Source of the DNA: Anaerolineae bacterium
GTDB taxonomy: Bacteria; Chloroflexota; Anaerolineae; UBA1429
Assembly: GCA_963675785.1 (NCBI GenBank)
Contig: OY776562.1
Location: 1,120,001 to 1,184,000, forward strand
Direction of reading: 5' to 3'
Length of the DNA stretch: 64,000 nt
In this document: piece by piece, positions 20,091 through 39,853 of the stretch
How positions within the stretch are numbered: the stretch's first letter is position 1
Layout of the letters: each line of letters opens with the position of its first letter
The notes under the pieces: generated by a model
The model's database searches: none
What the model saw: only the letters and a program-made list of their open reading frames with translations
Told to the model about the DNA's origin: nothing
Translations under genes and position numbers: made by a program

Positions 20091-20106
20091 CACGCTGTCT
20101 AATGAA

Positions 20107-20226
20107 TGGCAGGGGTGCTCCCGAGCCCGGATGTGACGGAGCACAATGGGGGAAGCCGGTGAAAGACCGGCGCTGTCCCGCAACTGTAAGGCGCTAACGC
20201 GCCAAGCCAGGATGCCCGCCTCTGCT
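20107..20226 (+). ncRNA. Cobalamin (B12) riboswitch
   Basis: GGGAAGCCGGTGAAAGACCGGCGCTGTCCCGCAACTGT core and AGCCAGGATGCCCGCC B12-box, upstream of an ECF transporter operon. Confidence 0.93.
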
Positions 20227-20291
20227 ATCCGCCCAGCAACCTTCGTGGAGAAAGGGGTGCTCGCATGTCTAGGTGTATCTATCTTTCCGTC

Positions 20292-35219: not shown

Positions 35220-36497
35220 CTAGTCTTTTTGGGATGCTCGGAGTTGGGCTTTGTACTCTTGCATATCAATCACACGGCCCGTCCGGCGTGCTTCTTCTGC
35301 TGCAAACGACATCAGGTGGCTCTCCAAAGAAGCTCTGGCTGATGTTAGCGGCTCTGTATCCTCCCCCCGAACGGCCGCAATAAATGCCTTCATGACGCCA
35401 GCATCACCACCGCCGTGTCCGCTCTCAGAGCGCCCGGGCTCCAAACGATTCACATTGCCCGTCAGGTAATCGTGTGTCTCAATCAGCCAGGCCGATTCAC
35501 TGGCCCGCAGGGTAGCCTTGGTGGCATCGTAACGCATGGTGCGCACATTCTCATGTGAATGCCCTTGCATCACAAAATCAACGGTCGTTCCGTTTTCCAG
35601 TTCCATGGCCACAACCTGATGATCCACTGCCGAGTTATCGCAATGATAGACGCAACGCCCATAGGGGCCGTGTTGTAGCGCCTGCAGGCGTCCCTCGTAC
35701 GAAAGATCTTCGGTAATGGCGCTTACTGGCCAGCCTGTGCTCTCTGTAAGGTACTGGCGAGGTGCATAATAGGGGCAAGAATCGGCTGCAGGGCAGCCAT
35801 CCATACAGCGCTCGGGTGCTCCTGCCGGGGCATTCTCAGCTCCAAAGTGCGTCAACGCACCAAAAGAGGACAGTCGCTTGACCGGGCTTCCCAGCAGCCA
35901 ATAGAGGATATCCATATCATGGCAACACTTGGCCAGGATCATGGGAGAAGTCCGTTCTGTGTTCCCCCAGTTTCCTCGAACGAAAGAATGGGCCATGTGC
36001 CAGTAGGCAACGTTCTCACGGTGAGACACGTTAATGATCTCGCCGAGCTGATCTGAAGAAACGATCTGCTTGAGGGCCTGCCAGAACGGGGCATAACGCA
36101 TCACGTGGCATATCTGCAAAATCTGCCCAGCCTGCTCGGCAGCATCGACCAATCGCACGCAATCCTCGGGTCTGGTGGCCATGGGCTTTTCCAACAGGAC
36201 ATGGTATCCCTTTTGAAGGGCAGCCAGTGTCGATGCCAAATGCATCTGGTCCATCGTGGTATTCAGCAACCCTTCGCAGAGTTGCGGCACTGCTAAAAGC
36301 GCTTGCCAAGAATCAAAACATCTCTCCGCGGGTATGTCATGAGCCCTTGCGAAACGTTCTCTGCGAACAAGGTCAGGTTCAGCAACCGCTGTAAAACGAA
36401 CAAGCTGAGGATGCTGCAGCGCAAATTCACCATAGGCATAATAACCGCGGCCCCCGGCGCCTAGCAAGGCCAGCTCAACAGGTCTAGACATACTCAT
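35220..36497 (-). CDS. Gfo/Idh/MocA family oxidoreductase
   Basis: GAGGRG, LLEKP, HSFVRGNW, KCCHDMD, GHGGGD. Confidence 0.92.
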   Translation of the reverse strand: MSMSRPVELALLGAGGRGYYAYGEFALQHPQLVRFTAVAEPDLVRRERFARAHDIPAERCFDSWQALLAVPQLCEGLLNTTMDQMHLASTLAALQKGYHVLLEKPMATRPEDCVRLVDAAEQAGQILQICHVMRYAPFWQALKQIVSSDQLGEIINVSHRENVAYWHMAHSFVRGNWGNTERTSPMILAKCCHDMDILYWLLGSPVKRLSSFGALTHFGAENAPAGAPERCMDGCPAADSCPYYAPRQYLTESTGWPVSAITEDLSYEGRLQALQHGPYGRCVYHCDNSAVDHQVVAMELENGTTVDFVMQGHSHENVRTMRYDATKATLRASESAWLIETHDYLTGNVNRLEPGRSESGHGGGDAGVMKAFIAAVRGEDTEPLTSARASLESHLMSFAAEEARRTGRVIDMQEYKAQLRASQKD

Positions 36498-36618
36498 CAC
36501 CCTCCTCATGCGGACTGCGCCATGCTACTCAATAGCCGTGGCTGTGTCAACAGTTGGAAAGAGCTATTCGCTAGTGCCGTACCTTCTAGGGAGACCTTTG
36601 CCTTTATGGTGGTTGCGC

Positions 36619-36891
36619 CTAGTGGCGATCGTTTCGCGATTTTGGGGTGGCAGGTTTTACGCGTAGTGTTCGGCCGCCAAATTGGGTGCCGTCAAGCTCA
36701 ACAATCGCGGTGTTTGCTGCTTGTTCTGTCTCCATTGTCACAAATCCAAAACCACGAGCGCGGCCTGTCTCGCGATCGTATATCAAGGCGACTTCGCTTA
36801 CAGGACCGATTGCAGTAAAGACAGCGGCAAGGTCTTTTTCTGTAACTTCATACGGCAAGTTACCTACATAGATTCGCGATCCCATCTCCAT
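36619..36891 (-). CDS. RRM-domain RNA-binding protein
   Basis: IYVGNL (RNP2), RGFGFV (RNP1); AAGGAGG RBS. Confidence 0.93.
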   Translation of the reverse strand: MEMGSRIYVGNLPYEVTEKDLAAVFTAIGPVSEVALIYDRETGRARGFGFVTMETEQAANTAIVELDGTQFGGRTLRVKPATPKSRNDRH

Positions 36892-36959
36892 CAAATAACC
36901 TCCTTCAAGGCTCAAACTTAGCGCGATGGTTAGAACTCTCATTCATGCGCTCTTTGTCC

Positions 36960-36988
36960 ATTGTATTTTGTCATGCGTCCTCAGTCAA
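36960..36988 (-). promoter_or_regulatory. sigma70 promoter of the RRM gene
   Basis: TTGACT-N17-TACAAT on the minus strand. Confidence 0.7.
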
Positions 36989-37120
36989 GCTAATTTTCCT
37001 TTTATTAGCGTTCTTTAAGATTTTGTTATGTATGAAAAGCGAATTGCCTCTGCGGGGCAGGCAATTCGCCGTTTTTCAAATCCTTGTATATACTGGCGGA
37101 ATGATAGAGGAGGAATGTCC

Positions 37121-37603
37121 ATGATAGTGGATGCTAGAACGCAGGTTGCTCATGCTTTGGAGGCAGCTGGCGTAGAGACAGAGATCATCATCTTTGAGGA
37201 TTCAACCGCCACGTCGCAAGAGGCAGCAGATTGCCTTGGCGTGCCTGTGGGCGCTATTGCCAAAAGCCTCTGCTTTATGGTCGTGGGTGAGCCCATTCTG
37301 GTTATCGCTTCGGGCGATACCCGCATTGATGATCGCAAGTTGGGCCAAGAGTTCGGGGTGAGCCGCAAAAAAGTTAAAATTGCCACGGCTGATCAAGTGC
37401 AAGCGGCAACGGGATTTGCTCCGGGTGGGGTGGCGCCTGTTGGCCACACCTCCCAGCTCACCATCCTGGTCGATCAGGCACTTGGCCGTTTTGATACAGT
37501 CTATGCTGCGGCAGGCACGCCTCACGCCGTGTTCGAGATTGCCTTTAAAGAACTTGTCCGCGTAACAAAGGCGCGCGTGGTTGATCTGACACAGGGTTTA
37601 TGA
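37121..37603 (+). CDS. YbaK/EbsC aminoacyl-tRNA deacylase family protein
   Basis: IAKSL, TGFAPGGVAP, YAAAG. Confidence 0.9.
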   Translation: MIVDARTQVAHALEAAGVETEIIIFEDSTATSQEAADCLGVPVGAIAKSLCFMVVGEPILVIASGDTRIDDRKLGQEFGVSRKKVKIATADQVQAATGFAPGGVAPVGHTSQLTILVDQALGRFDTVYAAAGTPHAVFEIAFKELVRVTKARVVDLTQGL

Positions 37604-37646
37604 TGCCCTTGTTCTTCTACTGAACGCGCATAATTCCGTTGATTTG

Positions 37647-37675
37647 TTGACAATAAAGACACGTGGTAGTACTAT
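37647..37675 (+). promoter_or_regulatory. Near-consensus sigma70 promoter upstream of a standalone RNA
   Basis: TTGACA-N17-TACTAT; predicted +1 near G37683. Confidence 0.8.
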
Positions 37676-37682
37676 TTTTATT

Positions 37683-37826
37683 GCGAGGTTCGAGAGGTTG
37701 ATGGGTCAAAGGAACGACCGCTGGGTGATTGGGCACATGGCTTAGGATCCCTGGTCAGATTCAGAGTGTGTACTCGATTACATGAACCGGCGGAAACGCT
37801 TCCGACTACAGGTCACTTGATCTCGC
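37683..37826 (+). ncRNA. Standalone structured small RNA (rod-like; 6S-like or unclassified)
   Basis: Own promoter and terminator, no substantial ORF; ends pair (GCGAGGTTCGAG / CTTGATCTCGC); nested stems GGAA/TTCC, CCGCTGG/CCGGCGG, GTGATTGGGCACAT/GTGTACTCGATTAC. Confidence 0.65.
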
Positions 37827-37836
37827 CCCTTTTCCG

Positions 37837-37872
37837 AAAGTGGGGGACATGTATATGTCCCCCACTTTTTTT
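37837..37872. terminator. Bidirectional terminator
   Basis: AAAGTGGGGGACAT / ATGTCCCCCACTTT stem with a T run on the plus strand. Confidence 0.88.
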
Positions 37873-37883
37873 GTTCCTAAAAA

Positions 37884-39125
37884 TTACTCGTGGCGCAGGG
37901 CTTCGATGGGTTCCATCTGCGCGGCACGCCTGGCCGGATAGATACCAAAGAACAGGCCCACAGCTGCCGAAAAGGCTACGGACAAGAACACAGAGCTGCT
38001 CGTTACAGCCGTGGGGAATACATCCAGGCTGTTGACGATGGCCGAAACCAACCATCCAAAGCCAATCCCCAGCAAGCCGCCGACGAGAGAAAGCACAATT
38101 GACTCAATCAAGAACTGCCACAAGATGTCCGATTCTCTGGCCCCCACGGCCTTACGGATGCCGATCTCTCGTGTGCGCTCGGTGACAGAGACCAGCATGA
38201 TGTTCATAATGCCAATGCCGCCAACGAGAAGTGAGATAGCCGCTACGGCCCCCAGGAAAATCGTAAACATATTGGTTACCTGATCAAACACGCCGGCGAT
38301 ACTCTCTTGCGAAGTCAGGGTAAAGTCATCCTCACCATAGTTGACATCATGCTCTTCGCGAAGTATCAAACGAATCTCTTCCATGGCTTCATCGCTCATG
38401 CCTTCATCGGCAGAGACACTGATGTAATCCACCACGTCGCCATAGCGCGAGTTATACGTATCAGCAAAGAGTCTGTCTTGGGCGGTTGTAAGCGGAACAA
38501 TGGCCAGCTCATCGGACGAGAACATGGGGAGGGCACTGCCGCCTTTGGATTCGAGAACCCCCACCACTTCAAATGGAATGCTGTTGATGCGTACAGTCTC
38601 ACCCAAGGCCGATTCTGCGTCGCCAAAGAGGCTCTCGGCTGTATCGGCGCCTAGCACCACAACCCGCGAGCTACTCTGTTCATCACTATCTGTGATAAAC
38701 GCGCCGTATTCCACCACATAGTTTCTGACATAGAGATAATCAGATGTGGTGCCCGTCACACTGAGGCTGACACTCTCACCATCATAGGTGATTGTGCCAG
38801 AGCGGCTTACTTCAGGGGCTACGCCCGCCACATAGGTGGTCCGTGTTGTATCTGCGATTGCCTCGGCATCCTGTCGTGTGAGCGGGATGATTTTATCAGG
38901 TTCTTCCGAGTCATCAGCGAAACTAACGCCCGACATGACATAAATCAAGTTGGAACCTACCGACGATATCTCGGCCTGGATGGCGTCCTGGGCGCCGGCT
39001 CCCACAGAGAGAATAGCAATGACGGCACCCGTGCCAATGATGATGCCCAACATCGTCAGGATTGAGCGTGTCTTGTTTGCCAAGAGGTTGCGAAAAGCCT
39101 GCTTGATGCTTTCGAGGGTGCTCAT
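37884..39125 (-). CDS. MacB/FtsX-family ABC permease
   Basis: [47 protein letters not shown]. Confidence 0.93.
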
Positions 39126-39853
39126 GCGCGCACCTCTTCGAACTCGGGCTCTGACAAAGATTCTGCAAGTTTGATATGATCTACTTGATAATCGCCTTCA
39201 ATCAGCCCATCCCGAATCCGAATAATGCGCTGTGTATATTCGGCTACTTCAGGGTCATGGGTTACAAAGATGACAGTGATACCCTTTTCGCGTTGAAGCT
39301 TTTGGAACAGGGCAATGATCTCTTGCCCTGTCTTTGTATCCAGGTTACCAGTTGGCTCATCAGCCAGAATGATGCTGGGACTGTTCACAAGCGCTCGGGC
39401 TATGGCAACTCGCTGCTGCTGACCGCCGGATAGTTCGGTAGGTTTGTGGTGCATCCGACCTTCCAGGCCCACTGTTTCGAGTGCCTTCATCGCCAGCTTG
39501 CGCCGGTTGGGTTTTCCCGAGTAAAGCAAGGGCAGCTCGACATTTTCGATAGCTGTTGTTCGGGCAAGCAGGTTGTACTGCTGAAAGACAAAGCCAATTT
39601 TCTGATTGCGGATGGCGGCAAGCCGGTCGCTCGAAAGTTTGGCAACATCTGTGCCTTCGAGTTTGTAGGTTCCACCACTGGGCACATCCAGGCAGCCCAG
39701 AATGTTCATCAGGGTGCTTTTGCCAGACCCTGAGGGCCCCATAATGGCTGTCAGTTCACCTTCTCGCAGTTCAAGAGAGATATCGCGCAAGGCGTGAACC
39801 TGAACGTCGCCCATGGTATATACTTTTGTGACATGCTCAAGTTCAATTAACAT
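39122..39853 (-). CDS. ABC ATPase (MacB/LolD type)
   Basis: [26 protein letters not shown]. Confidence 0.95.

Follow-up and report, generated by a model that had tools for sequence, protein, structure and literature searches.

The question raised by this locus is whether a gap of 280 nt (37604-37883), on which a YbaK-type gene (plus strand) and a MacB/FtsX permease gene (minus strand) converge, holds a gene of its own or is simply the space in which its neighbours end. The window, the whole stretch of DNA that was analysed, comprises 64,000 nucleotides from the genome of an Anaerolineae bacterium, and positions without a prefix refer to it. A first-pass annotation of the sequence had placed a stand-alone structured RNA here, with its own promoter and terminator, and every sequence feature that it described is present at the positions it gave. 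The computed features of the locus are a promoter consensus, a terminator, a strand-specific fold, the absence of a plausible open reading frame (ORF), the absence of an Rfam match, and a single copy in the genome. Beyond these, we infer transcription, action in trans, and a pairing mechanism for the candidate RNA. Our preferred reading, which we hold tentatively and with confidence a little short of even, is that the gap contains a gene for a small non-coding RNA that is transcribed on its own and restricted to the lineage, and that would act by base pairing. The features on which this reading is built, and those of the surrounding genes, are collected in Table 1.

Table 1. Features of the convergent gap and its neighbouring genes, in window coordinates.
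Feature	Position	Strand	Details
RRM RNA-binding protein gene	36619..36942	-	genome's only RRM_1 match; likely true start 36891
YbaK-type aminoacyl-tRNA editing gene (tRNA_edit)	37112..37603 (ORF opening 37028, likely start 37112)	+	PF04073, 91.7 bits
Sigma-70-type promoter-like site	37647..37675	+	TTGACA 37647-37652, 17-nt spacer, TACTAT 37670-37675
Predicted RNA body, about 145 nt, long imperfect rod of nested helices	37682..37826	+	minimum free energy (MFE) fold
Closing helix, 5' arm GCGAGGU	37683..37689	+	pairs with 37820-37826
Apical hairpin, with 8-nt loop CCUGGUCA (37750-37757)	37745..37762	+	loop mean unpaired probability 0.98
Internal-loop strand AUGAA	37782..37786	+	predicted unpaired 1.0; largest one-sided loop, 5 nt
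Closing helix, 3' arm AUCUCGC	37820..37826	+	pairs with 37683-37689
Single-stranded C/U-rich linker CCCUUUUCC, body to terminator	37827..37835	+	predicted unpaired 0.99
Intrinsic terminator: 15-bp stem (7 G-C), 4-nt loop, T7 run 37866-37872	37836..37872	+	consensus scan; hairpin 37836-37869
MacB_PCD + FtsX ABC-transporter permease gene	37884..39125	-	PF12704 161 bits; PF02687 86.7 bits

The gap is long for a space between converging genes. In a crude ORF-based gene map of the genome (2664 genes, with 314 convergent gaps amounting to 42.9 kb in total), the median convergent gap is 71 nt, and 41 of the 314 are equally long or longer than this one. The G + C content of the segment is 0.45-0.50, slightly under that of its flanks, and the candidate RNA is rich in G and U, with a GC skew of +0.26. 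Both of the genes that the annotation had named as neighbours, ybaK and one for an RRM protein, are present upstream. At the ybaK stop codon there is only a weak hairpin of 5 pairs (37593-37609). Because it is so weak, ybaK may use the strong terminator at 37836, and its mRNA probably runs on to that point, which would make the terminator common to both units. The RRM gene lies about 740 nt upstream of the candidate RNA; its true start is likely the methionine codon at 36891 rather than that at 36942, as the domain does not start until residue 24 of the long ORF. On the other side of the gap, the permease gene is the last gene of an ABC-transporter operon.

The promoter-like site that had been proposed at the head of the folded segment, TTGACA-17-TACTAT, was recovered by a consensus scan. 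It matches the sigma-70 consensus at 10 of 12 positions, with four of six in the -10 hexamer. Transcription usually starts 6-9 nt past the -10 hexamer and, from this distance, would be expected to begin here at about 37681-37684. The distribution of similar sites was determined across the 3.22-Mb genome by counting every perfect TTGACA that is followed, after 16-18 nt, by TAnnnT. There are 221 of these, the candidate's included, and 126 of them fall in the 5.3% of the genome that lacks ORFs of at least 100 amino acids, with 95 in the other 94.7%; their density is 24-fold higher outside long ORFs. Within the convergent gaps of the crude gene map there are 11 such sites compared with 1.0 expected from 30 mononucleotide shuffles, which is an 11-fold enrichment. 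Since a convergent gap should contain no promoter for an mRNA, most of these 11 sites must drive small unannotated genes. Judged from its sequence and context, the promoter at 37647-37675 is probably real. The SRP RNA gene of the same genome has a comparable arrangement, with TTGACA-17-TATGCT ending 8 nt before the 5' end of the RNA and a hairpin past its 3' end. The 6S gene of this genome has no site with a perfect -35 hexamer and TAnnnT.

At the other end of the segment, the terminator is oriented for the plus strand, since its hairpin, when read on the minus strand, has three U only behind it. The annotation had also described a strong terminator with a convergent gene beyond it, and had argued that the segment is not a riboswitch leader. 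Both statements agree with the layout: a 15-pair hairpin with a T7 run is followed by the permease gene on the minus strand, and the unit of promoter, body, and terminator has no downstream gene on the plus strand. Seven ORFs of at least 20 amino acids overlap the gap, and none of them makes a plausible gene. They start upstream of or inside the promoter, or lie on the minus strand, or overlap the terminator or the permease gene. The only one of at least 20 amino acids that lies wholly past the predicted start is an 89-amino-acid frame that crosses the terminator and runs antisense into the permease gene. The sequence thus has the features of a stand-alone small RNA gene, namely a promoter of its own, an intrinsic terminator, and no coding frame.

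The body between these signals is predicted to fold into a single long rod. For positions 37680-37828 the MFE structure has 53 pairs at -53.3 kcal/mol, and 13 of the 53 pairs are G-U. This agrees with the earlier description of a segment of about 145 nt with paired ends and nested helices, the ends being closed by GCGAGGU and AUCUCGC. Apart from the terminator loop, three stretches have a predicted unpaired probability of at least 0.98 (the apical loop CCUGGUCA, the internal-loop strand AUGAA, and the linker CCCUUUUCC), and CCUGG also lies in a predicted loop. The body alone folds with z = -2.2, with 5 of 200 shuffled sequences folding equally well, and together with the terminator it reaches z = -4.05, which none of 200 shuffles matches. 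The reverse strand of the body gives -33.2 kcal/mol (z = +1.08), a level of folding reached by 175 of 200 shuffles. Such a bias between the strands is consistent with the number of G-U pairs in the body. The predicted folding is therefore strand-specific, yet only modestly significant, and the MFE structure makes up less than 1% of the ensemble.

Several known families of RNA were considered for a segment of this shape. A scan with Rfam 15 at the gathering score finds no family at the candidate locus. In the window as a whole, the sole match at this level is a cobalamin riboswitch aptamer (RF00174, 77.2 bits) at 20096-20237 on the plus strand. With the threshold relaxed to E ≤ 10 on a 401-nt slice (37550-37950), six weak matches of 13-21 bits appear, all far under the cut-offs of their families. 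All six overlap the terminator hairpin, and the conserved positions that they align are mostly located there. The annotation's default guess had been 6S RNA (RF00013; cut-off 46.4 bits), and this has to be abandoned: the model does not match the slice even at E ≤ 10, and a canonical 6S RNA is found elsewhere in the genome (G000:C1:2011488-2011651, 68.9 bits). The shape speaks against it as well. The usual large central bubble, which the annotation had already failed to see, is absent from the single-sequence prediction, in which the largest one-sided internal loop is one of 5 nt at 37782-37786.

The other families that had been put forward for comparison fare no better. Short blocks resembling the raiA motif are present in the sequence as described, but carry no family signal: RF03072 does not match the candidate locus even at E ≤ 10. 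Across the whole genome this model reaches 12.9 and 12.0 bits at best, in both cases away from the candidate, with a cut-off of 101.3 bits. Neither of the SRP models (RF00169 and RF01854) matches at the locus, and a large-type SRP RNA is found at G000:C1:2179699-2179960, with scores of 169.6 bits and 72.1 bits. For tRNA-like and tmRNA-like structures, ARAGORN reports 0 genes in 36000-39500 and there is no RF00005 match at E ≤ 10. A mobile element of the MITE or PATE type was also considered and rejected, the segment being single-copy in the 3.22-Mb genome by nhmmer, blastn, and a covariance model. Among the papers listed for small or 6S RNAs of Chloroflexi, titles and abstract openings mention no such RNA, which is not proof of its absence from the literature.

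Relatives of the segment were sought at several levels. The source organism is the sole member of its genus among the genomes compared, and the nearest genomes belong to other genera, in which identity does not exceed 55% for YbaK and 59% for the permease. Such distances are too great for most small RNAs, and the absence of a homolog at these distances says little either way. A BLAST search of the 241-nt unit against 60 relatives returned only the sequence itself. A single-sequence covariance model was built from the candidate sequence and its predicted fold. It finds nothing in 41 genomes of the family (0 of 41) and gives one match in 150 genomes of the class, in G159 (G159:C3:46826-46974), with 25.9 bits and a per-genome E of 0.0015. 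What the model matches there is a palindromic hairpin of GGGGTCAGGGG repeats, which scores on either strand and has almost no sequence in common with the candidate. The hairpin sits between two ORFs that overlap it at both ends, and for this reason also the match is regarded as spurious.

Searches guided by gene order gave a similar picture. The ybaK orthologues, at most 55% identical, are followed by unrelated DNA, and the covariance model finds no homolog across 62 loci of ybaK relatives. Downstream of one orthologue (G003:C106) there is a TTGACA...TATACT site, followed by a GT-rich and apparently structured non-coding stretch; this is unrelated in sequence to the candidate RNA. A scan of metagenomes with YbaK yielded 51 loci, the best having 50% identity over the full length and up to 55% over part of it, and in these 51 the covariance model gives nothing beyond one match of 13.1 bits (E 0.49). 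Beside the permease orthologues of the five closest relatives (56-59% identity), the convergent gaps are short or unrelated, with a best covariance-model score of 12.3 bits. A two-anchor pattern has 0 matches in the contigs of species-representative genomes and 0 in viral contigs. The 18-mer of the apical hairpin has 16 matches in unrelated phyla, about the number expected by chance, and at these the covariance model aligns the 18-mer itself only.

Near-identical DNA occurs in public sequencing runs under several labels, and none of the 22 runs listed is one of RNA. One contig, from run X9, spans 37468-38209 (742 nt) and covers the whole unit. It differs from the window by 27 substitutions and two indels and comes from a diverged relative. 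In length it differs at two places only, lacking one T of the run after the -10 hexamer and carrying an additional G after 37882, and both promoter hexamers and their spacing are intact despite the loss of the T. The seven of the 27 substitutions that were listed lie in the 3' end of ybaK (37516-37588). Runs X10, X11, and X13 gave short pieces only. Hundreds of metagenome contigs match a segment of the FtsX region of the permease gene (38124-38250) at 80-90% identity; this is a highly conserved paralogous motif and does not represent coverage of the strain. An unclassified Chloroflexota RNA, as the annotation had suggested, would imply a family, and these searches found no second member of one. 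Judged from the sequence data, the candidate is a plausible, though unproven, lineage-restricted small RNA, an orphan with no family around it.

The architecture of the candidate can also be compared with that of other loci in the same genome. A script was used to search for a perfect -35 promoter followed by a strong terminator within 450 nt, and found 23 distinct units of which the candidate locus is one; one terminator is reached at two different spacings. An Rfam scan took in 20 of the 22 others, leaving aside one unit with a spacing as short as 36 nt and another with 52 nt. Eight of the 20 match Rfam, as six tRNA loci and two T-box leaders, and a ninth is a tRNA-Leu by ARAGORN, so that at least nine of the 20 are tRNAs or T-box leaders. 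Of the units that allow a check, therefore, about half belong to genuine RNA genes or leaders. The tRNA-Leu(GAG) found by ARAGORN lies at G000:C1:2706486-2706569 on the plus strand and is absent from the Rfam gathering scan there. A further unit, at C1:217875-218187 on the minus strand, carries a GGGTGGTACCGCG signature that, judged by eye, is T-box-like. Run against the 12 units lacking an Rfam match, the candidate's covariance model scores at most 8 bits, and identifies no sibling.

Along with these observations, a mechanism can be suggested for the candidate RNA. Transcription from TTGACA-17-TACTAT would begin at the predicted start and end at about 37869-37872, at the T-run, giving an RNA of about 190 nt. 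Its parts would be the imperfect rod (145 nt), the C/U-rich single-stranded linker (9 nt), and the terminator hairpin. The ybaK mRNA would end at the same terminator, in a layout like that of small RNAs that arise at the 3' ends of genes from promoters of their own. The RNA would then most likely pair with mRNAs through the three exposed stretches given above, in the apical loop, the internal loop, and the linker. Among these, the linker is the candidate seed, and its C/U-rich composition would suit purine-rich ribosome-binding sites. Pairing of this kind would need neither Hfq nor CsrA, and profiles for these proteins (PF17209 and PF02599) have no match in the genome, which is 94.8% complete. 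Complementarity to the candidate across the genome is not above chance, the best cases being perfect matches of 14 nt with E of at least 1.3. A crude duplex scan against 2663 start regions gave unrealistic duplexes with long loops only and is uninformative about targets.

Different explanations can be given for the same observations, and the chief competing one denies a separate RNA gene altogether. The gap would then be spacer or the 3'UTR of ybaK, with a shared terminator, and the promoter and rod would be fortuitous or inconsequential. We consider this somewhat unlikely. It accounts readily for the terminator, which ybaK needs anyway if its mRNA passes the weak hairpin at the stop codon and reaches it, as it probably does. 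It also accounts for the segment being missing in every relative examined, as would be the case for non-functional, fast-evolving DNA, and a body fold with a z of merely -2.2 is in keeping with it. For the promoter the argument runs both ways. Chance alone would account for about one in 11 of the perfect -35 sites in convergent gaps, but the enrichment of these sites in such gaps, and the known RNAs found in many of the units that run from promoter to terminator, argue for a real gene. Furthermore, the promoter-like site stands exactly where the closing helix starts, the gap has a length four times the median, and folding is strongly biased to the strand of the promoter.

Other explanations accept that an RNA is made and differ on what it does. 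It could bind protein: either the RRM protein, to which it might serve as partner, sponge, or cargo, or RNA polymerase, as a 6S-like decoy. We regard this as improbable. The shape, a long rod in which long single strands are few, would suit binding of this type, as would the G + U-rich composition. The neighbouring RRM gene is the only RRM_1 match in the 3.2-Mb genome, and neither Hfq nor CsrA was found there. The 6S-like version is opposed by the lack of a match to the 6S model, the canonical 6S elsewhere, and the missing central bubble. For the RRM version, the adjacency was noticed post hoc and the linkage is not conserved, since in the loci of relatives that were examined the RRM gene does not lie beside the orthologues of ybaK or the permease. 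Its most specific form, in which the rod RNA is the dedicated partner of the sole RRM protein (as sponge, scaffold, or regulator) and the two make up a bacterial RRM-RNA regulatory pair not described before, is very unlikely. Least probable of all is that the segment is the mRNA of a micro-peptide, for example a 14-codon frame with its ATG at 37701, or the remnant of a decayed gene or mobile element. By eye, a purine run, GAGAGG, precedes this ATG by 3 nt, but a typical ribosome-binding site stands further from the start codon than this, and none of the seven ORFs of at least 20 amino acids is plausible. A remnant would explain why the segment is lineage-specific and looks like an insertion; its single copy by nhmmer and blastn sets it apart from a repeat of the MITE or PATE type, and its G + C content differs only slightly from that of the flanks.

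For the preferred reading, a small RNA gene with its own promoter, the nearest known kind is presumably that of the trans-acting, base-pairing small RNAs of bacteria, in particular the type I small RNAs derived from 3'UTRs, which have their own promoter and share a terminator with the mRNA, for example DapZ and MicL. The candidate resembles these in having a sigma-70-type promoter of its own shortly past the stop codon of ybaK and a strong intrinsic terminator in common with that gene, in lacking an ORF, in its length (100-200 nt), and in the exposed stretch beside the terminator. It differs in that no Hfq was found, no conservation was detected, and the body is an unusually long continuous rod. 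With regard to mechanism only, there is an analogy with the small RNAs with C-rich motifs in Gram-positive bacteria that work independently of Hfq, of the type of RsaE and RoxS. By this analogy, purine-rich ribosome-binding sites could be bound by the unpaired C-rich stretches of the candidate, CCCUUUUCC and the looped CCUGG. The candidate has no Rfam match to any such family. The likeness to 6S RNA is one of general form, both being stand-alone rods, 150-190 nt long, whose ends pair, and is outweighed by the missing match at E ≤ 10, the missing bubble, and the 6S gene elsewhere. With the raiA motif the candidate has in common only that it is a stand-alone structured RNA; the locus is unmatched by that model, and the best score in the genome is far below its cut-off.

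If it is transcribed, the candidate would be among very few candidate riboregulators in a poorly studied lineage. The organism is apparently without the usual small RNA chaperones and, again if transcribed, the RNA would provide a handle on RNA-based regulation there. For the present it is an unvalidated candidate, restricted to one species and without a family, for which the 6S and raiA guesses are wrong. Within the same genome, eleven of the other units that run from a promoter to a terminator have neither an Rfam gathering match nor a tRNA, and several of them may be small RNA genes or genes for small peptides. For example, the units at G000:C1:159024-159265 and 1743283-1743494, both on the minus strand, have similar short frames (ATGCAACATAG...) after purine-rich sequences that resemble ribosome-binding sites, and these two may be a pair of small-peptide genes.
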